Positions 11,880 to 40,856 of a DNA stretch of 64,000 nt are shown here, piece after piece; position 1 is the stretch's first letter, and each line of letters starts with the position of its first letter. This DNA is from Parcubacteria group bacterium (GTDB lineage Bacteria; Patescibacteriota; Minisyncoccia; SW-4-49-11). Position numbers and translations under genes: made by a program. The notes below the pieces were generated by a model. The model did no database searches and had not been told where the DNA came from. It saw only the letters and a list, made by a program, of their open reading frames with translations. Location of the stretch: NCBI GenBank assembly GCA_943354045.1, contig CALRBF010000001.1:343598-407597 (forward strand). Reading direction: 5' to 3'.

Positions 11880-12596
11880 TTAAATTATATTTACATAAAA
11901 ATATTCCCAAAATGCTTCTAATATACTCCATATACCAAAGCCGAAAAACATCAGCATTACTGAGTTTGCAATAAAGACTAAAAACAGGACTAAAAATATT
12001 ATAATAAGGGGTTTATTGTATAATCTATTATGTCCAACAACTGGATAACTGATATTGTTGTCTAAATCGGAGGTCTTTACAAGGCTAGTATCAAGAGAGG
12101 GTTTTTTGTTACGATGATACAAAATAAATATAGGAACTATAAGAAATGACCATATAAGGAATAATATTATATGTACACCTATAAATATAATAGGCAAGAA
12201 ATTCCAATCATTATTTCCATCAGGAGATAATGTCATAATAAAGCTTAATATTGTAACTATAAAGAGGGCTAAAATACTATCTCTATATCGAGACCAAGAT
12301 ATTGTCTTATAAAACGTCAAAAACCAATAAAGAAACCAAACTAAAGGCAATGTTGCTGCGGCCATAAAGAATATATAATACAGAAAACCTACGTCAAAGT
12401 TAGAGGTAGCACTTATAAACACTAGTGATAAGTATAATATCAGTATAAGGGATATCACCACGATATAATTTTTAGTATACCTATGTATTTTATTTTGATT
12501 AGGAGTAGTATTTGGTGCTTTGCTATAAATATCTTTAATTTCTTGCAAATTACTATTAACTGAGGGTTGTTCCTGATTTAAATTTATTTCATCCAT
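11880..12596 (-). CDS. hypothetical polytopic membrane protein (cassette cargo)
   Basis: Several TM helices. The N-terminus (MDEINLNQEQ...) is paralogous to 12752-13684. Confidence 0.4.
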   Translation of the reverse strand: MDEINLNQEQPSVNSNLQEIKDIYSKAPNTTPNQNKIHRYTKNYIVVISLILILYLSLVFISATSNFDVGFLYYIFFMAAATLPLVWFLYWFLTFYKTISWSRYRDSILALFIVTILSFIMTLSPDGNNDWNFLPIIFIGVHIILFLIWSFLIVPIFILYHRNKKPSLDTSLVKTSDLDNNISYPVVGHNRLYNKPLIIIFLVLFLVFIANSVMLMFFGFGIWSILEAFWEYFYVNII

Positions 12597-17248: not shown

Positions 17249-17378
17249 ATAAAATAAATATTTCCTTTTGTATATTATAGCATATTTATAATGAGGTATA
17301 ATAATGTATTAATAAGATGAGAAACATCGTAGACAAAGAGAAGAGACATGCTATACTAAAGAGAAGAAATAAAAAAAT

Positions 17379-19301
17379 ATGATCAAAGCTAAAAGAGTAC
17401 AAAAAGGGTTCACCCTACTCGAGATATTATTAGTAATAGCAGCAATAGGGATATTAGCGGCAATAATATTGGTGGCAATAAACCCCAATAGACAATTAGC
17501 ACAAGTAAGGAATGCAGAGAGGAGATCAGAAATAAATACAATATACAAAGCCCTAGAACAATATCTAATAGATACAAGGAGTTATCCCACAGGGATAACA
17601 ACATCAATACAAGATATATGTATAAATGGAAACACAACAAATTGTGTAAATTTAGGAGTATTAGTCCCCGACTATATAGCAGCAATACCAATAGATCCAG
17701 GAGGAGGGGCTTATAGAGTGGTAATAAATACAAGTAATAATAGAGTATCCGTATATGCCAGTAATGCAGAACTAGGACAGGGTATAGGTATCAATGACCG
17801 ACCTTGGACCCCTGCAAACATCAGTACGGCGCTTTGGTTGGATGCAGCGGATGCCAGCACGATCACGCTCAATGGCAGCACTGTTAGCCAGTGGAACGAC
17901 AAAAGCGGGAATGCGAAACACGCTACGCAAGCAACGGCTGCTAATCAGCCTGCATACACGGCCAGTGGTTTGAACGGTAAGCCAGTGCTGACTTGGGACG
18001 GAGGTAACGACGTGCTGAACACTGCATCAGCACTCAATCACCCTGTAAGCATCTACTCTGTTGCTCAACTTAGCGGTGCCACGAATTCAACAAGGGGGAT
18101 TGTTGGGTCAGGAAGTCAATCTTATTCCCTTGGCACTCTTAGCTCATCACCTGCTGCGACCTCCGCATATGCACTTTGGAATCCGTTCCTCAACGGCGGC
18201 GCGTACATAAACAACACGGCAACAACAGACCCTGTTGTTCTTGGTAGCACTACCGTTTCCAACGTCGAAAACACTTGGAATACTTATGTGAACGGCAGCA
18301 ATGCTGGGCAGGCAATTTGGGATACTGGCACGCCCGCGGCGCCTGGCTTTATTAGGATCGGCTACAGCGGCGTCGGCAGTGAATATTGGCTGGGCACTAT
18401 TGCTGAAGTAGTTATCACCTCGACAACCCTTTCCACCACCGACCGCCAAAAACTTGAAGGCTACCTCGCCTGGAAATGGGGCTTAACAAATAATTTACCA
18501 GCCAATCACCCATATAAATGGAATGGGACTGAATTTGGAGGAGTAAATATTACAGATACAGATGCCCAAACTTATATTGCAGCGGTAGAAACTGCAGATG
18601 GGCAGTCTTTAGAGAATAATACAAGATTAGCTATTCAAAACTTTATAGTTGGAGCAAAAACAGATGGTATATGGGATGCTATAAAATCATCTAATATACT
18701 AGCAGGAGCCAGAACTTTGACTGGAGCATTAGTACCCTTGAAGGGTACGGCACCGACAAACTTCAACTTTGTAAGTGGAGATTATAACAGGAAGACGGGA
18801 CTGGTGGGGAATGGGAGCACGAAGTATCTAGATAGCAATCGGAATAACAATGCTGATCCGCAAAACAGCTTTCACGTATCTGCGCAGATTTCATCGGCAC
18901 ATTCATTGTTGACGAATAGCACGTATATTGGTGCTGGAAATAGTGTTCCTGGACTTACTCATTTGGGAGCAGCCCGTCTAAGTGGCCTAGACACCTTGTT
19001 TTTTAGAAATCGCAGCACTACCGACATCCAAAGTGGTTCTGCTGGCACCACAGGTTTTATTGGAATGTCTAGACCAAATTCAACATCCATCAACTATCGT
19101 TTTAACTCTACGACCGCAACTGGAGCACTTACATCAGAAACTCCTTTTAACGGTAATTTGTTGATTTTTGGTCGAGTCGTTGGGCAACCATATATTGCTG
19201 GCCGTATCGCCTTCTACAGCATCGGGGAATCCCTAAACCTCGCCCTGCTGGATGCCAGGGTCACCCAACTTATGACAGATTTAGGTAATGCAATTCCATA
19301 A
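17379..19301 (+). CDS. Type IV pilin-like protein with two LamG/concanavalin-A-like domains
   Basis: Prepilin leader MIKAKRVQKG|FTLLEILLVIAAIGILAAI. The C-terminal region carries LamG-like motifs (LWLDAADASTI..SQWNDKSGN, EGYLAWKWGL). GC-rich segments at about 17800-18480 and 18720-19290. Confidence 0.7.
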   Translation: MIKAKRVQKGFTLLEILLVIAAIGILAAIILVAINPNRQLAQVRNAERRSEINTIYKALEQYLIDTRSYPTGITTSIQDICINGNTTNCVNLGVLVPDYIAAIPIDPGGGAYRVVINTSNNRVSVYASNAELGQGIGINDRPWTPANISTALWLDAADASTITLNGSTVSQWNDKSGNAKHATQATAANQPAYTASGLNGKPVLTWDGGNDVLNTASALNHPVSIYSVAQLSGATNSTRGIVGSGSQSYSLGTLSSSPAATSAYALWNPFLNGGAYINNTATTDPVVLGSTTVSNVENTWNTYVNGSNAGQAIWDTGTPAAPGFIRIGYSGVGSEYWLGTIAEVVITSTTLSTTDRQKLEGYLAWKWGLTNNLPANHPYKWNGTEFGGVNITDTDAQTYIAAVETADGQSLENNTRLAIQNFIVGAKTDGIWDAIKSSNILAGARTLTGALVPLKGTAPTNFNFVSGDYNRKTGLVGNGSTKYLDSNRNNNADPQNSFHVSAQISSAHSLLTNSTYIGAGNSVPGLTHLGAARLSGLDTLFFRNRSTTDIQSGSAGTTGFIGMSRPNSTSINYRFNSTTATGALTSETPFNGNLLIFGRVVGQPYIAGRIAFYSIGESLNLALLDARVTQLMTDLGNAIP

Positions 19302-19391
19302 TATGAAATGTTTAATTTTTGCTACAACAAAGTAATATTATAAGAGGGAAATTTTTAGAACAATGTCAGTGGGGGTATTGCCTCTATTAAA

Positions 19392-19434
19392 TGGAGGGAC
19401 TTAAAGCCTCCGCTACAAACATAAACATAATTCA
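19392..19434 (+). repeat. 43-bp direct repeat, left copy, flanking the RhuM cassette
   Basis: TGGAGGGACTTAAAGCCTCCGCTACAAACATAAACATAATTCA matches 20589-20631 at 42 of 43 positions. Confidence 0.85.
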
Positions 19435-19495: not shown

Positions 19496-20521
19496 ATGAA
19501 TAAAAAAATCCAAAAATCGGATCAAGAGCTACGCCATACACAACAAAATCAGATTGTGATTTATACAGGAGAAGATGGGCAATCTCGTCTAGAGGTAAAA
19601 TTTCAAGGAGAAACAGTTTGGCTAACACAGGCTCAGTTAGTAGACTTATTTCAATCCAGTAAAGCTAATATAAGCGAGCATATCAAAAATATATTTTTAG
19701 AAGGTGAATTAGATAAAAATTCAGTTGTTCGGAATTTCCGAACAACTGCCACAGATGGAAAAAATTATGAAGTAGAACACTATAATCTTGACCTCATAAT
19801 ATCACTCGGATACAGAGTTAAATCCAAAATAGCAACACAATTCCGTATTTGGGCAACTCAACATCTCAAAGAATATATCACCAAAGGCTTCACAATAGAT
19901 TCAGAAAAATTAAAAAATCTAGGAGGAGGAAATTATTGGAAAGAACTTCTAGAACAAATTAGAGATATAAGAAGTAGTGAAAAAGTACTTTATCGTCAAG
20001 TATTAGACCTATATGCAACAGCAATAGATTATAATCCAAACTCACAAGAATCATTAGAATTCTTTAAAACCATACAAAACAAATTACATTTTGCAGCACA
20101 TGGGCACACAGCCGCTGAGGTCATATACCTAAGAGTAGATTCAGACAAGCCATTTGTAGGACTACAAAACTTCAAAGGTAAACAACCAACCCAAGCAGAA
20201 GCAATGATAGCCAAAAACTTTTTATCCTTAACTGAATTAAAAATACTAAATAATTTAGTATCAGCCTACTTTGATTTTGCCGAGATAAATGCTATAGAAC
20301 AAAAGTTAATGAAAATGCAAGATTATATAATAGAATTAGACAATATTTTGCAATCTGCAGGTAGAAAACAATTATTCAATGTAGGTAAAATTAGTAATCA
20401 GGAAGCAATAGATAAAGCAACTACAGAATATAAAAAATATAAAGCCAAAACACTCAGCGAGGTAGAAAAAGCCTACTTAAAATCTATTAAAACCCTACAA
20501 AAAGATATAAAGAAAAAATAA
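19496..20521 (+). CDS. RhuM-family (virulence protein RhuM-like) DNA-binding protein
   Basis: The N-terminus IVIYTGEDGQSRLEVKFQGETVWLTQAQLVDLF...SEHIKNIF...RNFRTTATDGKNYEVEHYNLDLIISLGYRVKS..QFRIWATQ is a strong RhuM signature. Confidence 0.8.
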   Translation: MNKKIQKSDQELRHTQQNQIVIYTGEDGQSRLEVKFQGETVWLTQAQLVDLFQSSKANISEHIKNIFLEGELDKNSVVRNFRTTATDGKNYEVEHYNLDLIISLGYRVKSKIATQFRIWATQHLKEYITKGFTIDSEKLKNLGGGNYWKELLEQIRDIRSSEKVLYRQVLDLYATAIDYNPNSQESLEFFKTIQNKLHFAAHGHTAAEVIYLRVDSDKPFVGLQNFKGKQPTQAEAMIAKNFLSLTELKILNNLVSAYFDFAEINAIEQKLMKMQDYIIELDNILQSAGRKQLFNVGKISNQEAIDKATTEYKKYKAKTLSEVEKAYLKSIKTLQKDIKKK

Positions 20522-20535
20522 GTATGAAAAATACA

Positions 20536-20588
20536 GGCGACTGAAAGGTCACTACTACGAAAAACTATGTCGGCGGGGTCGCCGACTC
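20536..20588 (+). repeat. Short GC-rich repeat (GGCGACTGAAAGG / CTACGAAAAACT family)
   Basis: CAGGCGACTGAAAGGTCACTACTACGAAAAACTATGTCGGCGGGGTCGCCGACTCTACGAAAAACTG. Related copies occur at 7215-7262 (inverted), 31640-31720 and 63841-63920. Confidence 0.6.
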
Positions 20589-20631
20589 TACGAAAAACTG
20601 GAGGGACTTAAAGCCTTCGCTACAAACATAA
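20589..20631 (+). repeat. 43-bp direct repeat, right copy, flanking the RhuM cassette
   Basis: See 19392-19434. Confidence 0.85.
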
Positions 20632-20658
20632 ACATAATTCATAATTAAAAATCACCCT

Positions 20659-21360: not shown

Positions 21361-22503
21361 ATGACAAAAAATATAAAACAATATCAGTTTATTAGAGCTG
21401 TAGCAATATTATCGGGTACTATTATTGGTGCTGGAACCCTTGCTATTCCTTATACCATTTATTATGCTGGGTATTGGTTAGGAATATTATATTTAGTGAT
21501 ATTGGGAATTGTAATGTTGACATTACATTTAATGCTGGGTGAAGTGAGTTTGAGAACAAAAGGAATTGTACAAGTACCAGAGCTTATAAAAAAATACCTT
21601 GGCAAAAAAGGATATTTATTAGCTATGCTCTCAACAATATTTATCATATATGGAGCGATGACAGCTTATATTAGAGCGGCGGGAGATATGGTTAATGCGA
21701 TAATTCCATCGAATTCCTTTGCATGGTCAATTGTATTTTTTAGTATTGGAAGTTATTTGATTATAAAGGGCTTAAAAGTAGTAAGTAAATGGGAATTGGT
21801 ATTTGGTATAGGTATGCTCCTTATTATTATGACTATATGGCTAAAAGCTATGTATACCCAAAGTATTGATTGGTCTCAATTTTCTATTAATCCAAGTATT
21901 TCATTCTCCCATGCTATTGCTCCCTATGGGATAATATTATTTTCCTATTTTGGGCTTATTACGGTACCACAGCTGAAAAAAATATTGGGAAAACAAAGTG
22001 TTAAAATGAAATCAGCGATACAATTAGGATTATTAATACCAATTCTTCTTTATAGTATATTTGTAACCTTAGTAATAGGAGTGGCGGGATCAGATATTAC
22101 AAAAGTTGCTACCATAGCCCTTGGAGCAAAAATGGGGCCACAGGTACTCGGCATTATTACGGTATTTGCCCTTTTAGCCATGATAACCTCATTTATTACT
22201 ATGGGAATTGCTTTAATAAATTCTTATATTTCTTTTGGTAATATATCAAGACTAACAGCTACCATTATTACAGTAATACCACCTATTGCTATACTTACCT
22301 TAGATTGGGCTGAGTTTGATACTATTATTCGCTATGCGGGAGGAATAGGAATTAGTATAATATCTATACTAATTGTATTAATGTTTTGGCGATCAAAAGT
22401 TACAGGTAAAATAAACCCAGCTTATAGCTTGGGGCATTTGAAATGGGTTGGTATAGGTATGATTGTGATATTTAGTTTTGGAATACTCAGTTTATTCCTG
22501 TAA
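21361..22503 (+). CDS. Amino-acid permease-like transporter (about 11 TM)
   Basis: Polytopic membrane protein. The N-terminus resembles aromatic amino-acid/Aa_trans permeases. Confidence 0.45.
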   Translation: MTKNIKQYQFIRAVAILSGTIIGAGTLAIPYTIYYAGYWLGILYLVILGIVMLTLHLMLGEVSLRTKGIVQVPELIKKYLGKKGYLLAMLSTIFIIYGAMTAYIRAAGDMVNAIIPSNSFAWSIVFFSIGSYLIIKGLKVVSKWELVFGIGMLLIIMTIWLKAMYTQSIDWSQFSINPSISFSHAIAPYGIILFSYFGLITVPQLKKILGKQSVKMKSAIQLGLLIPILLYSIFVTLVIGVAGSDITKVATIALGAKMGPQVLGIITVFALLAMITSFITMGIALINSYISFGNISRLTATIITVIPPIAILTLDWAEFDTIIRYAGGIGISIISILIVLMFWRSKVTGKINPAYSLGHLKWVGIGMIVIFSFGILSLFL

Positions 22504-24525
22504 ATTTTTAATTAAGGATATTTCATCTCGTAAATCTTTTGCTTTCTCAAAATCCAATGCTTGAGCCGCTATATTCATTTGTTTGGTTAATTCTTCTATA
22601 ATAAATTCTCGCTCAGATATATCGAGGGAAGATATTTTTTGCTCCAATAGCTCTTTTTTCTTATCTTTGATAATACTTGACCGTATATCTTTTTTAATTC
22701 CCTGAGGTTTAATATTATGAGCAGTATTATATGTTTCTTGAATATCTCGGCGACGATTAGTCTCAGCAATAGCTCTCTCAATGGATTTAGTTCTTTTATT
22801 GGCATACAGAATAACCTTTCCATTTTGATGTCGGGCAGCTCTTCCAATTGTTTGAATCAGAGAGGTTTCATTACGCAAAAACCCTTCTTTATCTGCATCC
22901 AGAATGGCAACTAATGATACCTCGGGTAAATCCAATCCTTCTCGGAGTAAATTAATACCAACTAAAACATCAAATTCCCCTTGCCGTAATTTGGTGAGAA
23001 TTTCAGGTCTATCTAAGGTATCGATATCTGAGTGTAAATATTCAGTTTTTATATCACGCTCTTTGAGATAATCTGTGATATCTTCAGCCATTCTTTTAGT
23101 AAGAGTTAATATCAATACTCTTTCATCCTTGGCAATAATAGTACCAATTTCCTGAATAATATCTTGAATTTGATTATCTGTAGGTCTAATTTCAATAATG
23201 GGTTCCAAAAGTCCGGTAGGGCGAATAATTTGCTCTGCAATACCATCGGGACTTTCTTTATATTGCTGTAATTCAATAATAGAATGAACAGTATCATTGG
23301 TAGAATGAGCTAATTCATATTCTCCAGGAGTAGCAGAAACATACACAATATGAGGTATTTTAGCTTCAAACTCATAGAATTTTAAAGGCCTATTGTCCGC
23401 GGCAGAAGGTAATCTAAATCCAAAATCAATCAGGTTTTTTTTGCGAGCAGCGTCCCCATTGTGCATACCTCTAACTTGGGGGAGAGTAATATGAGACTCA
23501 TCAACTAAAGTAAGAAATTCATTGTCAGACTCAAGAAAATAATCGATTAGAGTATAAGGAGGCTCTCCCGGTGCACGACCCGTTAAATAGCGAGAATAAT
23601 TCTCAATTCCTTTAGTGAAACCGACCTCAGATAACATTTCTGCATCATAATTCACTCTTTCCTCAATACGCTGAGCCTCTACTAATTTATTGTGCTTTTT
23701 AAAAAATGCTACTCTTTCAGCCATCTCCTCCTTGATAAGGGGAATCATATTATCTACCTTAGTTCGGGTAGAAATCCAATGAGTAGCGGGGAATATTCGA
23801 TAAGAATCAATATACTTGGCAGGAAGTTGTTCCAAAATACTATCCTGATATTCATTATAGGAAATAGTTTCAATAGTATCTCCCCAAAAGCTAATTTTGA
23901 CCAAGCGCTTTTCTCCAGGTTCATGAATTTCTACCACATCTCCCTTGATACGAAAGCATCCCGGTTTAAAATCAATATCATTACGGCTATACTGAATACT
24001 AATCAAAGAGCGTATAAAATCATCTCTTTGAACTTTTTGCCCAATTTCAATAATTACCGATAAGTTCCCATAATCTTCAGGCGATCCAATACCATAAATA
24101 CAAGATACTGATGAAATAATAATAGTATCAGGATTTGATAATAAACTTTGAGTAGCTGCATGACGTAATCGCTCTACCTGATCATTGGTCATCGACTCTT
24201 TTTCAATATACGTATCAGAAGAGGGAAGATAGCTTTCAGGTTGATAATAATCATAATAAGATACAAAATAATGAACATTGTTCTCCGGAAAAAAGTCACG
24301 AAACTCCTGATATAATTGAGCCGCAAGAGTTTTATTATGAGAAATAATAAGAGTTGGTTTTTGATACTTTTCGATCAAATGAGCCATAGTAAAGGTTTTT
24401 CCTGAACCAGTTACTCCCAGTAGGGTTTGATGGGCGCGGCCCTCAGCCAGCCCTCGACTTAATTTGTCGATGGCTTGAGGCTGATCACCTTTCGGCTCAT
24501 AATGAGAGGAAATTTTAAACTTCAT
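22492..24525 (-). CDS. uvrB: Excinuclease ABC subunit B
   Basis: EPKGDQPQAI, GVTGSGKTFT, helicase motifs, beta-hairpin and C-terminal UvrB domain. The start is chosen at MKFKI (ATG at 24525); the ORF track extends to 24567. Confidence 0.92.
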   Translation of the reverse strand: MKFKISSHYEPKGDQPQAIDKLSRGLAEGRAHQTLLGVTGSGKTFTMAHLIEKYQKPTLIISHNKTLAAQLYQEFRDFFPENNVHYFVSYYDYYQPESYLPSSDTYIEKESMTNDQVERLRHAATQSLLSNPDTIIISSVSCIYGIGSPEDYGNLSVIIEIGQKVQRDDFIRSLISIQYSRNDIDFKPGCFRIKGDVVEIHEPGEKRLVKISFWGDTIETISYNEYQDSILEQLPAKYIDSYRIFPATHWISTRTKVDNMIPLIKEEMAERVAFFKKHNKLVEAQRIEERVNYDAEMLSEVGFTKGIENYSRYLTGRAPGEPPYTLIDYFLESDNEFLTLVDESHITLPQVRGMHNGDAARKKNLIDFGFRLPSAADNRPLKFYEFEAKIPHIVYVSATPGEYELAHSTNDTVHSIIELQQYKESPDGIAEQIIRPTGLLEPIIEIRPTDNQIQDIIQEIGTIIAKDERVLILTLTKRMAEDITDYLKERDIKTEYLHSDIDTLDRPEILTKLRQGEFDVLVGINLLREGLDLPEVSLVAILDADKEGFLRNETSLIQTIGRAARHQNGKVILYANKRTKSIERAIAETNRRRDIQETYNTAHNIKPQGIKKDIRSSIIKDKKKELLEQKISSLDISEREFIIEELTKQMNIAAQALDFEKAKDLRDEISLIKNLQE

Positions 24526-24630
24526 ATCTATTAGTATATCATTAAATATTGCGATAGCAATGCTCATAAAAATATATTCACCAAATGAAATATATATGAT
24601 ACAATAAAGTTAACTTAGAATATACTCAAT

Positions 24631-25011
24631 ATGGCAGAAAATAAAAAAACAGTACTACTCATAGAAGATGATATCTTTCTTAGAGAACTAGTTGGTATAA
24701 AATTACGTAAGTCCAAATATCAGGTAACAGAAGCTTCTAATGGTCAAGAGGGATTAGAAAAATTATTAGCTCAAGAATATGATATTGTGCTTTTGGATAT
24801 TATGCTTCCGATCAAGACGGGCTTTGAAGTATTAGAAGAATATAAGAAAAAAAAGCCAGATACTATTAATTCTAAAATTGTAATAATGAGTAATCTTAAT
24901 GAACAAAACTATATTACCAAAGCTTTAAAATTGGGTGCAATCGATTATGTTATTAAAGCACATTATTCTCCCACTGAAATAGTAGCAAAGATTAATCAAT
25001 TATTACAATAA
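24631..25011 (+). CDS. Stand-alone response regulator receiver domain (CheY-like)
   Basis: Acidic pocket EDD, phospho-acceptor D in VLLDIMLP, conserved K, 126 aa. Confidence 0.75.
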   Translation: MAENKKTVLLIEDDIFLRELVGIKLRKSKYQVTEASNGQEGLEKLLAQEYDIVLLDIMLPIKTGFEVLEEYKKKKPDTINSKIVIMSNLNEQNYITKALKLGAIDYVIKAHYSPTEIVAKINQLLQ

Positions 25012-25012
25012 T

Positions 25013-26149
25013 ATGAAAACTTTTCTCAAGCGTTGGAATACCTTAACCACTAAACAAAAATATACGGTATATGGAATTATAATTCTGATAGTGGGAGTTT
25101 CTGGTATAGGAATATATGCTTTTACACGTAGTTCAGACACTTCTTCCGATATAGTTGCCGGTACACAAGATAAAAAAACTGATGCGGCCAGAAATATATT
25201 AAACCCAAGTGAAGAGGAAATTACAAATGCGAGTCCACTGAGTGGTATTCAATGTGATAATTATAAACAAAGACCTGTGGCTGTAATGATGGCGGGAGAC
25301 GCTGTAGCAAGGCCATTATCTGGACTTAGTCAGGCAGATATTGTGGTAGAAATGCCCGTAATAACTGGTAGTGTAACAAGATTAATGGGAGTTTTTGTGT
25401 GTAATCTGCCACAAGAAGTTGGTTCAATTCGTAGTGCTAGACATGATTACATTAGTTTAGTAAGAGGTTGGGATGCCATTTATGTACACTGGGGAGGGTC
25501 TCACTTCGCTCTTGATGAGCTCAAAACAGGTAAGAGATATTCTGGTGAAGATTTAGGAAAAATATCAGATATTGATGCGATGTCATCAAGCGGACCATTT
25601 TTCCGTAAAAGCACAGCCCCAGCTCCTCACAATGGATTTGCTTCCTTACCAAAAGTTCTAGATTTAGCAAAATCTCGAGGTTATTCTCTTACTACTGACT
25701 TTGAGGGATATAATTTTCAAAGTAATCAAAATATTGACTCTGAAAAAGCAAATGCAAAAAATGGAACTTTATATGTAGGGTTTGGAGGAGTGTTCGCAAC
25801 TCGTTGGCAATATAATAAAGATACCAATAGTTATACTCGATATTGGGCTGGACAAAAAGATACTGATAGAGGGAATAATAATGCAGATATTACCCCTAAA
25901 AATATTGTTGTTATCAGAGCAGAGTCTCGACAAATTGAGGGACAATATAATGAGGTTAGTCTTTATGGTAAAGGAGAGGGAAAACTATATCAAAATGGTC
26001 AAGAAAAAACCATTGCTTGGAAAAAAGATGGGTTTAAAGATACTTTGAGATTCTATAATGAAGCAGGGGAAGAAATTGCACTTGTTCCGGGATCAACTTT
26101 TATTCAAGTTCTCGAACCAAATCAAAGTTTGAAATGGGAGCTTAATTAG
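25013..26149 (+). CDS. DUF3048-like secreted/membrane-anchored protein
   Basis: N-terminal TM. The motif RPVAVMMAGDAVARPLSGLSQADIVVEMPV resembles YerB/DUF3048. Probably co-transcribed with the receiver gene. Confidence 0.45.
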   Translation: MKTFLKRWNTLTTKQKYTVYGIIILIVGVSGIGIYAFTRSSDTSSDIVAGTQDKKTDAARNILNPSEEEITNASPLSGIQCDNYKQRPVAVMMAGDAVARPLSGLSQADIVVEMPVITGSVTRLMGVFVCNLPQEVGSIRSARHDYISLVRGWDAIYVHWGGSHFALDELKTGKRYSGEDLGKISDIDAMSSSGPFFRKSTAPAPHNGFASLPKVLDLAKSRGYSLTTDFEGYNFQSNQNIDSEKANAKNGTLYVGFGGVFATRWQYNKDTNSYTRYWAGQKDTDRGNNNADITPKNIVVIRAESRQIEGQYNEVSLYGKGEGKLYQNGQEKTIAWKKDGFKDTLRFYNEAGEEIALVPGSTFIQVLEPNQSLKWELN

Positions 26150-26168
26150 TGATTAGCTTGCGACAATC

Positions 26169-27191
26169 GTGATTATATCAATTTCTGGACCAGATACCTA
26201 TCGTTCAAGAGAAAAACTTTATTCTATACAAGAATTAGGAATTCAGAAACAGGCAAAACAAGAAGTCTTTGATTTTACTGAAATTGTATTGCCAGACACT
26301 CCGGAAATAGTATTGTCTCGATTAAAACAAAGTCTCAATACGAGTTCTTTATTCACTGAAAAAAGATTACTTATTATTAGAGGATTAGCTTCCCTGCCTA
26401 AAGCATTATATACCACAATTAAAAAAAGTTTATCTATTCTCAAAGATAATGCCGATATTATTGTATTATTTTATGATACAGTAAGTATACTCAAAACCCA
26501 TCCACTAACAAAAACTTTAGATCAAGTAAAAGCAAAAAACACAGAATATACTTTTTTATCAGAACCAAAAGTAATAGCCTATATTCATCAAATGAGTTTA
26601 GATCAAGGTATAGATATCAAAAGAGATGGTATTATATATCTTATTTCTTATCAAAAAGCGCAGTATACATTAGCTCAAGAAAAATCAGATAATAGGTCAA
26701 AATCAAAAGCCAATGCCTTTCAAATAGATTTATATGCAATAGAATTGCTCTTAAATACATTATATAACTACTATAAAAATAAGCCTATTACGGTTGAAAT
26801 GCTCAAAGTAATACTCCCACAAGAGCAATCATATAGTATATTTTCTTTAGCTGAATCAATATATGCAAGGAATTATGGCAAATATATAGCAACATTAAAC
26901 TTTCTTCAAAAACAAGGTATAGAAGGGATAAAAGTGTATGGATTATTATTATCCCAAATCAAGACAGCACTTATTATCAAAATGTCTCAGGAAAGCCAAA
27001 AACAATATATTGATTATATAAAAGGTCATCCCTATATACTCAAAATAACTGCTCAGAATATTCAGTCTTGGAACTCTAAAGACCTCAAAAAAATATATTT
27101 AAATCTAATACAAGGAGACTATGAAATTAAATTTGAAGGTAAGGATTCTTATGAAAAACTGAAATCGATTGTCCTACAAATGAATATGTAG
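26169..27191 (+). CDS. holA: Probable DNA polymerase III delta subunit
   Basis: Size and N-terminal pattern are HolA-like. Weak. Confidence 0.35.
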   Translation: MIISISGPDTYRSREKLYSIQELGIQKQAKQEVFDFTEIVLPDTPEIVLSRLKQSLNTSSLFTEKRLLIIRGLASLPKALYTTIKKSLSILKDNADIIVLFYDTVSILKTHPLTKTLDQVKAKNTEYTFLSEPKVIAYIHQMSLDQGIDIKRDGIIYLISYQKAQYTLAQEKSDNRSKSKANAFQIDLYAIELLLNTLYNYYKNKPITVEMLKVILPQEQSYSIFSLAESIYARNYGKYIATLNFLQKQGIEGIKVYGLLLSQIKTALIIKMSQESQKQYIDYIKGHPYILKITAQNIQSWNSKDLKKIYLNLIQGDYEIKFEGKDSYEKLKSIVLQMNM

Positions 27192-27246
27192 TTAAGATAT
27201 ATGATAAAAACTATTTAAAATGTGGATAACTAGTCTATACAAAATC

Positions 27247-27256
27247 GGGGGGGGGG
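27247..27256 (+). promoter_or_regulatory. G10 homopolymer tract in the upstream region of 27292-28443
   Basis: AAAATCGGGGGGGGGGTGATAG. Candidate slipped-strand phase-variation tract. A similar CGGGGGGGGTGGATAG lies at 63752-63768. Confidence 0.35.
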
Positions 27257-27291
27257 TGATAGTATAAGTATATAAAATATAATATAATAAT

Positions 27292-28443
27292 ATGCAATTC
27301 AAAAAAGAATTATTATTAAGCTCACTATTTATCGGAATATTTTTTACATTAACCCCATATAGTAATGCAAAAATTGAATGTAAAAATATTTATGGTAATT
27401 TAGCAGGGGAAACTCCAGCAGATGATGAGCTTTGTCAGGGGATAATATATAACGAAATCCCAGGGAGAGCTTTTCCTAATGGGAGTATTATCAAGAAGAA
27501 AAATTATCCTCAAGTTTATTATATAGAAAATTTTCAAAAAAGAGCAATAGAGTCCCCAGCCTTATTTGAATCTCGTAATTTTGATTGGAATGCTTTAATT
27601 ATATCTTCAGAATGGGATGTAGACCTGATGCAGTTGTCTTATGACTCTACCAATACTTTTATTGGAGAAGATGGAGCTCCACTAACATTTAGAGACGGGT
27701 CATTATTATCTAATAGGGGCGGAGTCTATATTATATCGGATGGATTAAGAAGACCAATAGTATCACCCGCAGCTTTCCTAAGATTAGGATTCAAATGGAA
27801 TAATGTAAAAGCAGTATCAGACGCTGAACTTAATCTTCACCCACTAGGAGAAGCAGTTACTACAACATCTAATTATCCTGATGGAGTAGTGATTAAAACA
27901 GGTGGTGGGAAAATGTATTTAGTCGATGATGATAAAAGAAGATATATCCCATCTCCTTTAGTATTTGATTCTCTATTCAAATGGAATGAAACGGTAGATT
28001 TGTCTTTGGCTGTAGCTCCCGTATATAATCCAAGTGAAAAAGGGGATGTTATTATCCGAGATGGTGTTTTGATATCAGGAGAGGGTAAGGTGTGGGTAAC
28101 AGAATCAGGCAAAAAGATACCAATATATAGCCCAGAAATTTTTGAGAGCCTAGGATTGTCTTGGGGGCAAGTAAAGCCTGCTAGTACTTTTGATATGAAT
28201 AATATCCCAACTAATAATTCGAGTGATTTAGGGAAAAATATAAGGGTTTTTGCAGATGGAACTGCATTAAAATCAGATAGTTCTTCGCAAATTTATTATT
28301 CTAAGGCGGGTATATTACGTCCAATCAATACACCAGAGAGATTTTACTCCCGCTATCAGAATTTTAATCAGGTGATAACTGTACCAAAAAGACTTATAGA
28401 TAAATATCCTATTGGAAGTGAACTTCCTCCAAGTCCATATTAA
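27292..28443 (+). CDS. Secreted protein with five about 48-aa tandem repeats
   Basis: Signal peptide/TM. Repeat consensus G.Y.I..G.rR.I.SP..F.SlGf.W..V..V. Followed by a bidirectional terminator at 28455-28500. Confidence 0.4.
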   Translation: MQFKKELLLSSLFIGIFFTLTPYSNAKIECKNIYGNLAGETPADDELCQGIIYNEIPGRAFPNGSIIKKKNYPQVYYIENFQKRAIESPALFESRNFDWNALIISSEWDVDLMQLSYDSTNTFIGEDGAPLTFRDGSLLSNRGGVYIISDGLRRPIVSPAAFLRLGFKWNNVKAVSDAELNLHPLGEAVTTTSNYPDGVVIKTGGGKMYLVDDDKRRYIPSPLVFDSLFKWNETVDLSLAVAPVYNPSEKGDVIIRDGVLISGEGKVWVTESGKKIPIYSPEIFESLGLSWGQVKPASTFDMNNIPTNNSSDLGKNIRVFADGTALKSDSSSQIYYSKAGILRPINTPERFYSRYQNFNQVITVPKRLIDKYPIGSELPPSPY

Positions 28444-28505
28444 AATAACACTTAATATAACCTAAAAAGCTCCCAAATAAATCGGGAGCTTTTTAGGTTT
28501 AGGAC

Positions 28506-28775
28506 TTATTTGGTATCTAATGCTTGATTAAGTTTGGTCATAAGACGTGATTTTTTACGGGCTGCAGAATTCTTTTTTAAGATTCCTCGTTTAGCAGTCT
28601 TATCAATTGCCTTATAAACATTAGGCATAAATTCCTGAGCTTTTGTAATATCAGTTGAAAGATATCCTATAAACTCCTTTACAGAGTTTTTTAGTCTTTT
28701 CTTTACGATATTATTCTCAGCATTTTTCTTGAGAGATTGTCGATGTGCTTTAATAGCAGATTGTGTAATAGGCAT
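28506..28775 (-). CDS. rpsT: 30S ribosomal protein S20
   Basis: The basic helical protein MPITQSAIKAHRQSLKKN... matches S20. Confidence 0.85.
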   Translation of the reverse strand: MPITQSAIKAHRQSLKKNAENNIVKKRLKNSVKEFIGYLSTDITKAQEFMPNVYKAIDKTAKRGILKKNSAARKKSRLMTKLNQALDTK

Positions 28776-28779
28776 AGAT

Positions 28780-29004
28780 TTATCTGGTTACATAAGGAAT
28801 AATTGATAAAAACCGAGCTCTTTTCATAGACTTGGACAGATTTCTCTGATGATTTGCTCGAGTTCCTGTTCGGCGTGATGCTACGATTTTAGCTTGAGGA
28901 GTTAAAAACATCTTCAAAGTAACTGCATCCTTATAGTCTATTGCAACATTATTAGTGCTAAAATAGCATACCTTAGGGACTTTCTTCTTATTGTTCGTTC
29001 TCAT
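28780..29004 (-). CDS. rpsR: 30S ribosomal protein S18
   Basis: CYFS..IDYKD...LKMFLTPQAKI..RRTG match S18. Confidence 0.85.
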   Translation of the reverse strand: MRTNNKKKVPKVCYFSTNNVAIDYKDAVTLKMFLTPQAKIVASRRTGTRANHQRNLSKSMKRARFLSIIPYVTR

Positions 29005-29018
29005 ACGTGGTAAATTAA

Positions 29019-29495
29019 TTAAAATGGAATTTCTTCTAAATCGATTTCATCCTCATCTAGGTTGACAGTAGGAAGTTCTTCCTGAATGTCAGCTACTGGC
29101 TTTGAGGCGGTAGGCCTAGGAGTGCTTGGTCTAGACGCTGGGCTTGAAGGAGCTCCTGCTCCTGATGAACCCTTTGGTCCAAATTGAAATGACTCAATAA
29201 TAATTTCTGTACGATATTTTTTTTGTCCATCTTGGGCTTCCCATGATCGGGTCTGTAATCTTCCCTCTACAAGGATAAGAGAACCTTTTCTGAGATATTG
29301 GCTAATAGTATCAGCCTGCTTTCCATAAGCTACTACATTGTGATATTCAGCTGTTTCTTGCTTTTGTCCCTGCTTATCAACCCATGTGCGATTGGTGGCG
29401 AGGCTAAAACTTGATACAGATGATCCACTTGGTAAAGCTTTGAACTCAGGATCTTGAGTAAGATTTCCAATAAGATAGACTTTATTTAAATACAT
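29019..29495 (-). CDS. ssb: Single-stranded DNA-binding protein
   Basis: OB-fold motifs LIGNLTQDPE, HNVVAYGKQA; acidic C-terminal tail ending DLEEIPF. Confidence 0.9.
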   Translation of the reverse strand: MYLNKVYLIGNLTQDPEFKALPSGSSVSSFSLATNRTWVDKQGQKQETAEYHNVVAYGKQADTISQYLRKGSLILVEGRLQTRSWEAQDGQKKYRTEIIIESFQFGPKGSSGAGAPSSPASRPSTPRPTASKPVADIQEELPTVNLDEDEIDLEEIPF

Positions 29496-29514
29496 ACAGC
29501 AATTATATTAATGT

Positions 29515-29910
29515 TTATTCAACTTTAGGAGCTTCAGTAGGAGTCTCTTCCTTTGCCTTCTCAGCAATAGCTTCTACGGGGATTTCGCTTAATTTAAGAA
29601 AATCTTTTACGATTAAGAATCGTAGTATAGCAGCTTCTCGAGACAAAGAGCTCTCAAGAGTACTGAGTTTGCTGGGGTCTAATTCAAAAGTAGTTGTGTA
29701 ATAATAACCTTGTCTATAATGCTTAATTGGATAAGCGAATTTTCGAAGATTATTTTCATCGGTACCACCTCTTTCGGCTGAAAATGTTCTCTCGGTCTCA
29801 TTGGGCTTCCCTTCTAGGGATTTGATCTGCTCTGATACTACGGAATTGATAGCAATTTGCTCCTCATCAGTAAGCTCAGGCTTTAGGATATAGGTGATTT
29901 CGTATAACAT
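29515..29910 (-). CDS. rpsF: 30S ribosomal protein S6
   Basis: MLYEITYILKPELTDEE matches S6. The start is chosen at the internal Met, not the extended ORF-track start at 30024. Confidence 0.8.
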   Translation of the reverse strand: MLYEITYILKPELTDEEQIAINSVVSEQIKSLEGKPNETERTFSAERGGTDENNLRKFAYPIKHYRQGYYYTTTFELDPSKLSTLESSLSREAAILRFLIVKDFLKLSEIPVEAIAEKAKEETPTEAPKVE

Positions 29911-30061
29911 TATTCTATACAATACTAATAAACGGACATTTGTCTGTAGATACTCAGACATTGTGAAGTTGAAAGAACTTGCGAAGTTTGTTGTTATTAT
30001 AGCATAAAACTGAATATTTAGCAATAGTAAAGAAAAAACCCTCCAAGTATGGGGAGGGTTG

Positions 30062-30433
30062 CTAATGAGAATTGTGCGATATTATCAGATCAAGATATCT
30101 CTGAATAATTGCATAATGCCTTTCTTGTCTTCCTGTCAGCGTACCTAACTCATCATAATGAAGTGTGAACAATTCATTGATGCGCCTGAGTTGGCCAAGG
30201 ACTAGATGAAATTCACTCTCATTCAATGGTAAGGAATGAAGGGTATATTTTCCTATATGCATAGGCTTTAAAACATTCTGATGAAGTTCCTCAAGAAGAC
30301 TTAACACCTCTTCAGTTACTGGATCTTCTAAATTCCTACGGCTAAAAATCAAGAGATGTTCTCTGATGATATTCTTGGGATTATGGGAAAGAGTAGTTTG
30401 TTGAGGCGGAAAAAGAAACCAGGATTGAGACAT
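30062..30433 (-). CDS. hypothetical protein
   Basis: ORF with slightly elevated GC and no recognisable motif. Confidence 0.3.
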   Translation of the reverse strand: MSQSWFLFPPQQTTLSHNPKNIIREHLLIFSRRNLEDPVTEEVLSLLEELHQNVLKPMHIGKYTLHSLPLNESEFHLVLGQLRRINELFTLHYDELGTLTGRQERHYAIIQRYLDLIISHNSH

Positions 30434-30535
30434 GATTAATAAGGTGCAGAGGAATGCTTTTATTGTATCATATCTCTAGTAAAAAAGCTGAATATATAGT
30501 ATACTGGGGGCTATATAAGAGTTAATTATTATACT

Positions 30536-31606
30536 ATGTCTTTATCAATTGGTATTGTGGGCTTACCCAATGTTGGTAAATCTACTTTATTTCAAACCCT
30601 TACCAAAAAACAAGTCTCAGCTGAGAATTATCCTTTTTGTACTATTGAGCCTAATATCGGTACAGTTCCTGTGCCAGATAGTCGTCTTCAGGCTTTGGCT
30701 GATATTTCTAAATCTCTCAAAGTTTTACCCACCACTATAGAATTTATTGATATTGCGGGGCTTGTAAGAGGGGCGTCCAAGGGAGAGGGTCTTGGAAATG
30801 CTTTTTTAGCTAATATTCGATCAGTAGATGCTATTTGTCATGTGATAAGGAGTTTTCATAATGATGATATTACTCATGTAGAAAATAGAATACATCCCCT
30901 AGAAGACGCAGACATTATTAATACTGAGCTTTTATTGGCTGATCTTGATCAAATTACTAAAGCTTTACCACAAGTTGAGAAAAAAGCCAAGTCAAAAGAT
31001 GCTTTATCCCTCGAAGTATTGCCGATATTACAAAAAATATTACCCCAAATTGAATCAGGAACTGCTATTCGAGATGCGGGATTAGATTCAGAAGAGTTAT
31101 TTGCTATCAAATCATATAGTTTTCTTACCGCAAAGCCAATGCTCTATGTAGTAAATACCGATGAGACCTATACTCTGAATGATGATTTAATACAGTCTTT
31201 GGGTAAATCTATTATCCCACTATCAATCAAAATTGAATCAGAAATTAGTTTAATGGAAGAGGAGGAGCAAAAAGAATATTTAGCTATGCTGGGGCGAGAT
31301 ATAAGTGGACTTGATGTGTTAATTCGGGCAGGATATGATTTGCTTAACTTAATATCTTTTCTTACTACGGGGCCTCAAGAAACCAGGGCTTGGACAGTGG
31401 GACGAGGAACTTTGGCCCCACAGGCTGGGGGAGTAATTCACTCAGATATTGAGCGGGGATTTATTATGGCGGATATTATATCGTATCAGGACTTTATTGA
31501 TTGTGGAGGAGAATCTGGTGCTCGGCAACAAGGTAAACTTAGACAAGAAGGAAAGTCATATATCATTCAAGATGGAGATATATGTCATTTTAAGTTTAAT
31601 GTGTAA
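30536..31606 (+). CDS. ychF: Ribosome-binding ATPase YchF
   Basis: GIVGLPNVGKSTLF, NYPFCTIEPN, DIAGLV and the C-terminal TGS domain. Confidence 0.9.
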   Translation: MSLSIGIVGLPNVGKSTLFQTLTKKQVSAENYPFCTIEPNIGTVPVPDSRLQALADISKSLKVLPTTIEFIDIAGLVRGASKGEGLGNAFLANIRSVDAICHVIRSFHNDDITHVENRIHPLEDADIINTELLLADLDQITKALPQVEKKAKSKDALSLEVLPILQKILPQIESGTAIRDAGLDSEELFAIKSYSFLTAKPMLYVVNTDETYTLNDDLIQSLGKSIIPLSIKIESEISLMEEEEQKEYLAMLGRDISGLDVLIRAGYDLLNLISFLTTGPQETRAWTVGRGTLAPQAGGVIHSDIERGFIMADIISYQDFIDCGGESGARQQGKLRQEGKSYIIQDGDICHFKFNV

Positions 31607-31766
31607 GAGATTCGTAGTGGAGGGATTATACAATTATAAATTATGAATTATGTCGGGGGAGTGTTGCTCCTACGAAAAAATGGAGGGATGCTTCGCCACG
31701 AATGAACAATATAATTCAAATCTCTATAAATTTATGCTATGATAAATACAGATAATCTATAAATCT

Positions 31767-32042
31767 ATGAATTTATCTAAGTATCGATTTGAGGAAATAA
31801 TAAAAAGAGCCTATTTTAGTGGGGGTGGGTTTCTCTCATCTGGAGCTACTAGCGATCAGAAAAAAGAATATATTAAAGCTTTATTTGATGATGCTTTTGA
31901 TCGTTATGGCAAGGATAGAGATTTGGTATCGCTAGAGGAGTGGAATGAGATAAAGGATCATCTTATCTCCAATAAAAAGGATATTATATCCGAGGAAGAT
32001 ATAGAGATATTGGCTAAAGTAATAGAAGAAGAATTAAGGTAA
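31767..32042 (+). CDS. hypothetical protein
   Basis: ORF only. Confidence 0.3.
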   Translation: MNLSKYRFEEIIKRAYFSGGGFLSSGATSDQKKEYIKALFDDAFDRYGKDRDLVSLEEWNEIKDHLISNKKDIISEEDIEILAKVIEEELR

Positions 32043-32048
32043 AATATT

Positions 32049-32291
32049 ATGAAAACAATGGAAGATTATGCTAAAGAGGTTACAAAAAGAGCTGGCATCT
32101 CTGAATTTAGTGATGAAGCAAAAACTGTTCACGAAGAAATATATAGAGTTATGGGTGGGGGTAAGTACAAGCCCTTTAATGCAAATGATTTGGGTAAATA
32201 TGGTAGCACAATTTCTAATAATATCATAAGGACTAATTCACGTCTTGGAACACGGGTTGCTCCTCATCTTTCTAGTGTCTTAAAGAAATAA
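32049..32291 (+). CDS. hypothetical protein
   Basis: ORF only. Confidence 0.3.
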   Translation: MKTMEDYAKEVTKRAGISEFSDEAKTVHEEIYRVMGGGKYKPFNANDLGKYGSTISNNIIRTNSRLGTRVAPHLSSVLKK

Positions 32292-32294
32292 ATA

Positions 32295-33368: not shown

Positions 33369-33383
33369 ATATTAATTAGTTCT

Positions 33384-34070
33384 ATGATTTTATTCAAAAA
33401 TGTAACCAAAACATATGGAGAGGAGGAGTCCTTTGCAATTGAAAATATTAATCTCAAAATAGAGGATGGAGAATTTGTAGTTCTTGTTGGGCAAAGTGGT
33501 GCGGGAAAATCCACTCTGATGAAGCTTATTACGGGAGAACAGAAACCAGATAAGGGTGAGGTGTATTTAGGAAAAACTCGAGTTAATGATTTAAGATACA
33601 AAGATTTACCTCAACATAGAAGAGCTTTAGGAATTATTTTTCAAGACTTTAAGCTATTAGCTCAGAAAACTGCTTTTGAAAATATTGCTTTTGCAATGGA
33701 AATATTGGGCAAAGATAGTAATGAAATTGCCCGTAAAGTCCCACGATTTTTGAATATTGTGGGTATGGGAGCTAAGGCTAATAAATTTCCTAATCAATTA
33801 TCAGGGGGGGAAAGGCAAAGAATAGCTATTGCCCGAGCTCTTATCAATGAACCAGCGGTATTATTAGCTGATGAGCCGACAGGAAATCTGGATGTATTTA
33901 ATAGTTGGGATATTGTGAATTTACTTCTTAAAATTAATGAACAACTCAAAACAACTATTATTTTTGCAACCCATAATAAAGAAGTAGTAAACAGTATTAA
34001 TAAACGTGTTATCAGCCTTGATAAAGGTAACATTATTCGTGATAGCCTAGACGGAAAATATATTATCTAA
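33384..34070 (+). CDS. ftsE: Cell division ATP-binding protein FtsE
   Basis: Walker A GQSGAGKST, LSGGERQR, ADEPTGNLD. Confidence 0.85.
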   Translation: MILFKNVTKTYGEEESFAIENINLKIEDGEFVVLVGQSGAGKSTLMKLITGEQKPDKGEVYLGKTRVNDLRYKDLPQHRRALGIIFQDFKLLAQKTAFENIAFAMEILGKDSNEIARKVPRFLNIVGMGAKANKFPNQLSGGERQRIAIARALINEPAVLLADEPTGNLDVFNSWDIVNLLLKINEQLKTTIIFATHNKEVVNSINKRVISLDKGNIIRDSLDGKYII

Positions 34071-34085
34071 ATCAATATAAAATTT

Positions 34086-35015: not shown

Positions 35016-35026
35016 TTTATTTCATT

Positions 35027-35605: not shown

Positions 35606-35606
35606 T

Positions 35607-37262: not shown

Positions 37263-37300
37263 TTTTTGATTTTTAACCACAATAGGCGTATACTAGATAG

Positions 37301-39028: not shown

Positions 39029-39030
39029 AT

Positions 39031-40794: not shown

Positions 40795-40856
40795 GAATTA
40801 GGTTCTATGAGACAAAAAAAGAGGGAGTGTTAGCTCCCTTTTTTAGTAGCTCAGAT

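Follow-up and report, generated by a model that had tools for sequence, protein, structure and literature searches.

How does a single reading frame on an AT-rich bacterial chromosome come to change its base composition several times along its length, and what do the parts so marked do in the encoded protein? The question is raised by a gene at positions 17379..19301 (plus strand) of a 64,000-nt stretch of a Parcubacteria group bacterium (GenBank assembly GCA_943354045.1, contig CALRBF010000001.1, positions 343,598 to 407,597), referred to below as the window, which has a GC content of 0.349. A first-pass annotation, made from the letters alone, had described an open reading frame (ORF) of 640 amino acids (aa) at this place as a pilin gene carrying GC-rich lectin-like segments. 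The ORF is present as described and is the only one with a prepilin motif in the window. Our reading, to which we give a probability of about two in three, is that it encodes a modular type IV pilin of a bacterium of the Candidate Phyla Radiation (CPR), in which a native pilin scaffold carries lectin-fold modules of phage families that are exchanged as cassettes. The parts of the gene are listed here, GC3 being the GC content at third codon positions.

17379..19301, plus strand: modular type IV prepilin gene, 640 aa and stop codon (ORF call, Pfam, TIGRFAM).
17379..17480, plus strand: class III signal peptide, with a 10-residue leader ending in Gly, FTLLE and a hydrophobic alpha-1 helix (PF07963, TIGR02532, PDB pilin matches to aa 2-71).
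17379..17795, plus strand: pilin module, aa 1-139, of native composition, GC3 0.22 (composition, alignment).
17796..18518, plus strand: module B, aa 140-380, a predicted concanavalin A (ConA)/LamG-like jelly roll of family phrog_10356, GC 0.53, GC3 0.53 (PHROGs, Foldseek).
17904..18434, plus strand: variable core V1, aa 176-352 (segment typing).
18483..18734, plus strand: conserved block at the junction, native in composition, aa 369-452, GC3 0.15, which takes in the last part of module B, the linker and both N-terminal helices of module C (change-point model).
18531..19298, plus strand: module C, aa 385-640, with two helices, a predicted jelly-roll sandwich and a C-terminal helix (PHROGs, AlphaFold 2, Foldseek).
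18870..19199, plus strand: variable core V2, aa 498-607 (segment typing).

Background GC3 was 0.24 ± 0.08 over 464 sixty-codon windows of other long ORFs, and z scores were calculated against same-length windows from the remainder of the 64 kb. The gene gave the following values.

17379-17799, pilin part: GC 0.356, GC3 0.23, z 0.2.
17800-18480, first GC-richer segment: GC 0.533, GC3 0.53, z 4.3.
18481-18719, between the GC-richer segments: GC 0.356, GC3 0.16, z 0.2.
18720-19290, second GC-richer segment: GC 0.457, GC3 0.41, z 2.4.

The first segment had been called GC-rich, and the measurement agrees; its GC content was equalled at one other spot of the window only, in the region of an aldehyde-deformylating oxygenase (ADO) gene at ~50500. 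The second segment, which had been put at 50-60% GC, was raised yet lower than that. The pilin N-terminus and the stretch between the two segments are native in composition, as the first-pass annotation held. A Bernoulli change-point model with the Bayesian information criterion divided the gene into four blocks, with GC3 of 0.22 (aa 1-137), 0.53 (aa 138-368), 0.15 (aa 369-452) and 0.41 (aa 453-640). The rise in GC was found at synonymous sites and therefore does not just reflect an Ala/Gly/Thr-rich amino acid content. This bears on the explanation that no transfer took place and that the GC-rich stretches follow from an Ala/Gly/Thr/Ser/Asn make-up and from selection acting locally on a surface protein that is native and evolves fast. 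Such an origin would suit the GC content of 0.53-0.65 at codon position 2 through the domains and the GC3 of just 0.31 in V2, but it does not fit a GC3 of 0.53 over 231 codons against the background of the 464 coding windows, nor change points that are sharp and lie at domain borders. In addition, V1 is 75% identical at the DNA level to a gene on a phage-like contig, and GC3 is native in related pilins that carry different surface modules: among 45 related pilin scaffolds with other C-terminal modules, taken as a control from other metagenomes, GC3 was mostly 0.19-0.30. We consider an origin without transfer very improbable.

Three paralogs or orthologs in independent assemblies (L001, L084 and L085; genome GC 0.35) had the same block pattern, with GC3 of 0.18-0.22 in the pilin block, 0.25-0.28 in the junction and 0.31-0.82 in the remainder. 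The junction block (aa 369-452) was 79-100% identical in amino acid sequence among pilin-type relatives. A foreign synonymous-site composition is retained by the modules or, at a minimum, by their variable cores with the adjoining flanks; the pilin module and the B/C junction carry that of the host. Directly after the stop codon of one paralog, P0010, lay a 207-bp non-coding fragment of 62% GC that reads as the end of an Ig-like domain; judged from its sequence, it looks like a leftover of imported DNA.

Abrupt compositional switches could also arise in assembly, if reads of a GC-richer co-assembled organism or phage had been fused with the pilin gene of a CPR bacterium; samples of the same kinds are also rich in relatives of the modules. 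The first-pass annotation had itself raised a chimera as the alternative. Against it, five independent assemblies from the Joint Genome Institute and the European Nucleotide Archive (L001, L084, L085, L215 and L216) share the frame, the junctions and the block pattern, and a 425-kb contig in the databases encodes the exact protein. Moreover, the block joining the GC-rich parts keeps the reading frame, is conserved and has native composition. Since the same in-frame mosaic recurs in independent assemblies from different samples, a chimera is excluded for practical purposes and is scarcely credible as an explanation.

The strain comparison showed that whole gene copies are present or absent at different chromosomal sites, with flanks ~99% identical between strains. 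Contig L085 was 98.9% identical to positions 22242-31615 of the window and 96.4% identical to positions 31711-40865; between ychF and prfB it held an extra 2.9 kb with paralog P0010, where the window has 95 bp.

L085 9375-12277, against window 31616-31710: strain-specific segment with a paralogous pilin gene.

In L001 and L084 the paralog was located between a gene for a PilB-type ATPase and pgk. About 100 bp upstream, including a promoter-like sequence (TAGACA-16-TGcTATACT), and ~90 bp downstream travel with the gene. The 2.9-kb segment of L085 is bordered by GC-rich (0.52) non-coding sequence with repeat elements, and these border repeats recur downstream of the L001 paralog (12071-12230) and, more weakly, at 63507-63824 of the window.

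The protein begins with MIKAKRVQKG, followed by FTLLEILLVIAAIGILAAIILVAI; position -1 is G, position +1 is F and position +5 is E. It has the basic leader ending in Gly, the Phe at +1, the Glu at +5 and the hydrophobic stretch of a class III signal peptide. The prepilin leader and hydrophobic N-terminal helix reported in the first-pass annotation were borne out by matches above cut-off to Pfam N_methyl PF07963 (26.3 bits; cut-off 21.2) and TIGR02532 (27.6 bits; cut-off 16.3). A GspG-like match (TIGR01710, E 4e-13, aa 9-131) was below its cut-off, and sequence matches in PDB, across aa 2-126, were to pilins and pseudopilins alone. The pilin module was 74-99% identical among 13 pilin-type relatives. 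In the AlphaFold 2 model the pilin part had helices at residues 13-34 and 36-66 and strands at 111-128, with predicted local distance difference test (pLDDT) values of 40-65 at aa 71-139. Paralogs in related genomes adjoin a gene for a 996-aa T2SSE/PilB-type ATPase. Its AT-rich pilin module (aa 1-139) is native and continues in frame into two lectin-fold modules. The protein has the make-up by which modular pilins are defined (PMC8179133), a pilin module followed by further modules, here B and C, both of which were found independently in phage proteins.

In related CPR genomes the pilin scaffold of this gene (46-72% identical; contigs L170-L204) bears many other modules at the C-terminus, all of native composition: glycine-rich domains that end in ..GGSGIVIVRY, SBBP-type repeats, other LamG types and FGE-sulfatase-like C-lectin folds. 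Pilins with a length of just 150-190 aa that share the scaffold are probably the major subunits. One apparent fusion of pilin and LamG parts, in the Pirellulaceae contig L157, was rejected, as it is really two neighbouring genes.

The C-terminal domains had been described as two ConA/LamG-like jelly rolls. By fold this held for both, because of their Foldseek matches; by sequence it did not, as Pfam LamG (PF13385, Laminin_G_3) had no match in the 640-aa protein at E <= 1. V1 homologs that are 51-66% identical (P0166-P0169) carry precomputed PF13385 matches. The motif EGYLAWKWGL, which had been assigned to the second domain, is at aa 360-369, the end of the first. The AlphaFold model of the whole protein, built with 70 homologs, was confident at aa 140-230, 340-430 and 490-600. 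Its top Foldseek match in PDB was the modular minor pilin PilC of Streptococcus sanguinis (7oa7), followed by the lectin-like domains of clostridial neurotoxins (BoNT/TeNT Hc N-domain), trans-sialidases and laminin LG4-5. When aa 385-640 were modelled alone, pLDDT was 95.9, and Foldseek returned CBM40, a trans-sialidase lectin domain, agrin and laminin LG domains and the tailspike of cyanopodophage Pan3. The jelly-roll matches had a Foldseek probability of 1.0 for both the whole model and aa 385-640, with modest TM-scores of 0.3-0.6. The models thus predict the two-sheet jelly-roll sandwich, and they support a ConA/LamG-like fold for both domains. A search of a profile of modules B and C against PDB sequences found nothing, and the link to known structures is one of fold comparison alone.

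The family assignment of the modules came from PHROGs. Residues 140-380 matched phrog_10356 (E 6.3e-40), labelled 'virion structural protein', and residues 389-640 matched phrog_17104 (E 4.7e-81; profile positions 9-264 of 264), labelled 'unknown function'. The RefSeq name 'virion structural protein' is an annotation label, which may not be experimental in origin. The paper on cyanophage PA-SR01 was considered as experimental proof that the homologs are virion proteins and was set aside, as it gives only bands on SDS-PAGE, without the relevant ORF.

Relatives of the modules are encoded by 501 viral stretches in IMG/VR. In the best 80 of these 501, every alignment begins at query residue 130 or beyond, and therefore none includes the pilin part. 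The phage protein P0019 (532 aa) has modules B and C fused and is 47% identical; it is encoded on a 50-kb contig of GC 0.64 together with a major head protein (phrog_212, E 9e-47) and a tape-measure-like protein. Of the cultured phages with homologs, 12 of 19 records were cyanophages. In the Synechococcus siphoviruses KBS-S-2A (gp51/gp53) and S-CBS4 (gp57/gp58) each module has a gene of its own; the two genes are neighbours, have a GC of ~0.49 and a GC3 of 0.46-0.48, encode proteins 39-47% identical to the query, and have an endonuclease gene beside them. Module C was always C-terminal, on many different N-terminal anchors; in P0430 and P0441 it is fused to the N-terminus of a phage minor tail protein (phrog_15525, E 5e-40). 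At E <= 1e-3 the profile of modules B and C matched 15,267 fifty-percent clusters, of which 2,304 remained at E <= 1e-30; most are stand-alone proteins of ~260 aa.

In all three cyanophages KBS-S-2A, S-CBS4 and PA-SR01 an endonuclease or homing-endonuclease gene was located at most ~2 kb from a homolog of B or C, and in KBS-S-2A it lies between the two module homologs.

L167 7863-8531: endonuclease gene near module homologs.
L168 9564-10139: endonuclease gene near module homologs.
L169 677-1390: endonuclease gene near module homologs.

Such neighbouring endonucleases could help explain the wide spread of the modules among phages.

Which composition the donors had can be read from the phage loci. 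The GC3 of module C followed that of its flanks with a slope of 0.36-0.37, the value across viral loci (n = 98) being 0.36. A slope only about a third of that of the flanking genes fits a module that moves often between genomes of differing composition. For module B the slope was 0.60 in viral loci alone (n = 18) and 0.90 with distant bacterial LamG genes. A universal GC of 0.5 for both modules was therefore dropped, and a value of ~0.5 is claimed for module C and the CPR copies only. In the phage of GC 0.64 the LamG core was GC-poorer than its surroundings (GC3 ~0.3-0.4). These sequence comparisons support donors in a phage gene pool of ~0.5 GC, instead of the high-GC organism that the first-pass annotation had proposed. 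Its wider claim, that domains were acquired by recombination onto a native pilin scaffold, stands on the membership of the modules in phage families, their foreign GC3 and the pilin-less phage relatives.

Transfer could also have run the other way, from CPR pilins or cellular surface proteins, in which the modules would have arisen, to phages, for example those that infect these CPR bacteria or use pili. Many bacterial genomes, those of Verrucomicrobiota and Planctomycetota among them, contain LamG-like relatives of 30-45% identity, and a low-GC (0.355) viral contig of 70 kb, L062, carries compositionally native copies. We nevertheless think this direction unlikely, as the modules are compositional outliers in CPR genomes where the scaffold is native. 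The pilin-fused forms made up 26 of the 120 best matches and came from one narrow scaffold family, against thousands of phage or stand-alone forms with many N-terminal anchors.

The way in which the modules vary was determined from 14 full-length pilin-type proteins, which were aligned and typed segment by segment at 80% identity. There was a single type of pilin module, of junction and of the initial part of module C; V1 (aa 176-352) fell into 8 types and V2 (aa 498-607) into 9. Identity to the query was 74-99% in the frames and 15-35% in other core types, and V1 was 18-35% identical to the other V1 types of pilin-type relatives, with ~30% for its own paralogs. The V1/V2 combinations observed were A/A, A/B, B/B, C/C and C/E. 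The closest relatives of V1 were not pilins: they were stand-alone proteins of 258-259 aa on phage-like contigs, 75-78% identical. Across the whole LamG domain, the relative on L165/L166 was 79% identical to the query in amino acids and 75% in nucleotides. These contigs have a GC of 0.43, with 0.50 in the gene related to V1, and consist of packed same-strand genes with weak PHROG matches. The closest relatives of V2 outside its own allele group were non-pilin proteins, including the phage protein P0019, at 43-47%.

Exchange was evident among near-identical alleles as well. P0122 and P0123 are 93-99% identical to the query per segment to about aa 495 and then continue with the V2 of P0002. P0001 differs from the window gene at 64 nucleotides, of which 40 are in gene nt 1561-1706, 14 in 499-560 and none in 600-1200. 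This clustering of 54 of the 64 differences in two tracts, of which nt 1561-1706 is a 145-nt conversion tract, is a signature of short conversion tracts. The alignments show V1 and V2 replaced independently while the conserved blocks stay, sometimes wholesale and sometimes in tracts of 60-150 nt. They also support acquisition in more than a single event, with cores exchanged among alleles and paralogs.

Changes limited to two cores within conserved frames, together with the tracts of 60-145 nt that separate near-identical alleles, are also what programmed variation might produce, by a diversity-generating retroelement or by Neisseria-style silent cassettes with gene conversion. However, in the window, which covers 64 of at least 425 kb, blastn found no part of the gene a second time, whether as a copy or as a template-like repeat, and no reverse transcriptase appeared in Pfam scans of about half of the window ORFs. 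The cores differ along their full length by 65-80%, not at adenine-coded sites only. The gene does not look like the target of a diversity-generating retroelement, and variation of a programmed kind is in our estimation rather improbable.

The gene with its exchanged cassettes is a homolog of phage genes and is itself not a phage gene. DnaE, UvrB, ribosomal proteins and RF-2 are all encoded in the window. The UvrB is ~90% identical to proteins from metagenome-assembled genomes that NCBI labels Candidatus Parcubacteria or Paceibacterota, and ~57% identical to that of Saccharimonadales; the lineage placement is based on these labels of UvrB relatives. In a single scan, the pilin part was not found in GTDB genomes. 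No phage genes were found near the pilin gene in the flanks inspected, and this copy of phrog_10356/phrog_17104 lies between dnaE and a rhuM-family gene, not in a phage genome or virion. Because the flanking genes are cellular, and from the relatives of UvrB, the gene is placed on a CPR/Patescibacteria chromosome, not on a phage, and its bearer is a freshwater bacterium of this group.

From established pilin biology, a prepilin peptidase would cleave after Gly10 and the protein would be assembled into a type IV pilus through its hydrophobic alpha-1 helix. Most likely it is a low-abundance subunit at the pilus tip, a position suggested by its load of 500 residues. By analogy, the two lectin-like modules may bind surface glycans of a partner or host cell, and recombination at the conserved blocks, with environmental phage genes or with paralogs, may change the binding specificity. 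Cassette replacement of this kind would follow the same modular logic as phage host range. An adhesin-tipped pilin is plausible by analogy with PilC (PMC9934059) and PilX1 of TM7x (PMC11623550). The protein might instead serve as a decoy or shield that occupies phage receptors or binds phages, or be released after processing by prepilin peptidase. The sharing of modules with phage virion proteins, whose role is known by label only, would allow for this. Yet the lectin-fold pilins that have been solved and genetically tested are adhesins (PilC, PMC9934059; TM7x pilins, PMC11623550), and nothing in the sequence points to release, so that roles other than host adhesion also seem rather improbable.

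Several points weigh against a scaffold with phage-derived, exchanged adhesin modules. V2 is nearly native in composition (GC3 0.31), and the globular part of the pilin was modelled at low confidence (pLDDT 40-65). Genes for a prepilin peptidase or pilus machinery were not found in the Pfam scans of about half of the window ORFs. The role of the phage homologs is known from the PHROG labels alone; tip location and glycan binding are drawn from analogy, and the direction of transfer from composition and abundance, not from a rooted tree. On the phage side the nearest V1 has 75% DNA identity and the nearest V2 43-47% protein identity, and a recent donor was not found among the relatives searched.

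The pilin gene has dnaE upstream, on the opposite strand, and a rhuM-family gene, 6-phosphogluconolactonase and uvrB downstream. Its immediate surroundings are as follows.

17330..17357, plus strand: promoter-like site TAGACA-16 nt-TGcTATACT, 21 nt upstream of the start codon (consensus scan, 10/12 matches and TG extension).
17410-17733, minus strand: antisense ORF.
17711-17902, minus strand: antisense ORF.
18147-18449, minus strand: antisense ORF.
19302..19430, plus strand: 3' flank, of which 19302-19389 is conserved with the L001 paralog.

The promoter-like block is also kept upstream of the paralogs at another genomic locus in L001 and L084. The antisense ORFs (63-107 aa; mechanical ORF list) exist within 17410..18449 and have no support as genes, and the opposite strand holds a well-supported gene; they had rightly been called spurious. 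A 39-nt direct repeat with a GGAGG..CCTCC hairpin, 97% identical, was found by blastn at 19392-19430 and 20599-20637, and the pair flanks the rhuM-family gene at 19496-20521. In strain L216, sequence like 20545-20606 comes straight after the pilin gene and the rhuM gene is missing, which makes rhuM an insertion/deletion polymorphism.

Elsewhere in the window the following features were recorded.

50456-51157, plus strand: long-chain aldehyde decarbonylase/aldehyde-deformylating oxygenase, 233 aa (Pfam Ald_deCOase, E 2e-114).
53394-54812: NAMPT, GC 0.43.
54823-55734: NUDIX and cytidylyltransferase domains, NadM-like, GC 0.42.
57408-58373: NadR-like, AAA_28 and cytidylyltransferase domains.
59950-60600, minus strand: group I intron region (Rfam RF00028, 73 bits, 59986-60224).

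The ADO gene (GC 0.536, GC3 0.62) is the strongest compositional island in the window. Aldehyde-deformylating oxygenase is typical of cyanobacteria. The best solved-structure match was 2oc5 (376 bits), which we take for the enzyme of Prochlorococcus MIT9313; no organism is given in the search output. The 90% cluster of the protein has one member, and no gene for the partner acyl-ACP reductase was found next to it. The gene looks like a recent import from a picocyanobacterium. The three genes at 53394-58373 form a nicotinamide adenine dinucleotide (NAD) salvage cluster of raised GC; NAD salvage gene sets are frequent in phages. The upstream part of the group I intron holds an HNH-like ORF at 60173-60535, and the intron is followed by an apparent 3' half of a tRNA (..GGTTCGAATCCTACTCGCGGAGCCA); ARAGORN reported no tRNA in the window. 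Positions 58356-59953 contain three copies of a 76-nt unit on the minus strand, composed of a tRNA-like 3' end and a hairpin, 726 and 796 nt apart. The two ~0.7-kb bodies between them are 89-97% identical, with GC ~0.45, and had no Rfam match and no long ORF.

It is possible, as a tentative extension of our reading, that an episymbiotic CPR bacterium mounts the receptor-binding modules of its host's phages on its pili and refreshes them by recombination with phage DNA that it has taken up, phage and bacterium drawing on one shared cassette pool. Some hints, speculative as they are, point to picocyanobacteria or other cyanobacteria as the host. Twelve of the 19 cultured phages with homologs are cyanophages. 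At the DNA level, three of four matching records (two of three distinct phages) are Synechococcus phages, the fourth being a Rheinheimera phage. The window contains the GC-rich ADO gene of cyanobacterial type, and the contig with the nearest V1 relative encodes a Synechocystis-type W_rich_C protein. These hints are weakened by the bias of phage culture collections to cyanophages.

How CPR/Patescibacteria find and hold their hosts is poorly understood, and type IV pili with lectin-like minor pilins are leading candidates (PMC11623550). For one freshwater lineage, this locus shows homology between the candidate recognition modules and phage virion and tail modules, and it shows them to be exchanged as cassettes on a fixed scaffold, which suggests a route by which CPR bacteria may change what their pili stick to. 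The modules would then be predicted to share their surface-glycan ligands with the related phage proteins, and cassette type would track host type at strain level. The hosts of uncultured CPR bacteria might be guessed from those of the phages that carry the nearest cassettes. Even without the link to a host, the locus is a clean natural case of intragenic mosaic evolution that can be read from composition alone.

Modular pilins with lectin modules are an established class. The ConA-like module of S. sanguinis PilC binds glycans (PMC9934059), and in a survey of 1,200 modular pilins, including those of CPR phyla, modules of PF13385 type were among the commonest architectures (PMC8179133). In the literature searched, of which coverage was incomplete, there was no report of pilin-borne phage-family modules, persistent foreign composition or cassette exchange on a fixed scaffold. 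PilC, as a modular pilin and the best Foldseek match of the whole model, is close in kind. It differs in that two lectin-fold modules are present here, with no detectable sequence similarity and 13% identity in the structural alignment; phage-family modules, foreign codon composition and core exchange between alleles, which are features of the present gene, are not described for it.

Attachment of the cultured Saccharibacterium TM7x is inhibited by sugars, and its large minor pilins, whose C-terminal domains are lectin-like, have been implicated in binding to the host; deletion of PilX2, a beta-propeller protein, lowers host binding, and PilX1, with an L-type-lectin-like beta-jelly-roll, was characterised by structure prediction only (PMC11623550). 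Compared by description only, PilX1 and PilX2 resemble the present protein as large minor pilins of CPR bacteria with C-terminal lectin-like domains. That paper differs in having structural resemblance to lectins and capsid proteins, not phage-family membership, mosaicism or exchange.

ConA-like genes have also been reported in predicted CPR phages and read as adhesion-related (10.1101/2025.02.25.640227). To the phage families phrog_10356 and phrog_17104 there is strong sequence homology, with 39-47% identity to cyanophage proteins, and the two modules are fused in P0019. The difference is that in phages they are stand-alone or on phage anchors (minor tail protein phrog_15525), and no prepilin N-terminus was present among the viral contigs examined (the best 80 of 501). 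With domain shuffling in phage tail fibres and receptor-binding proteins, and with pilE/pilS of Neisseria, the gene shares conserved frames, recombined hypervariable cores, mosaic alleles and short tracts; unlike in Neisseria, a silent cassette locus was not found in the 64-kb window, and the exchange partners appear to include phage genes. What is new here with respect to the known modular pilins is that the modules appear to be phage-derived and are exchanged as cassettes.

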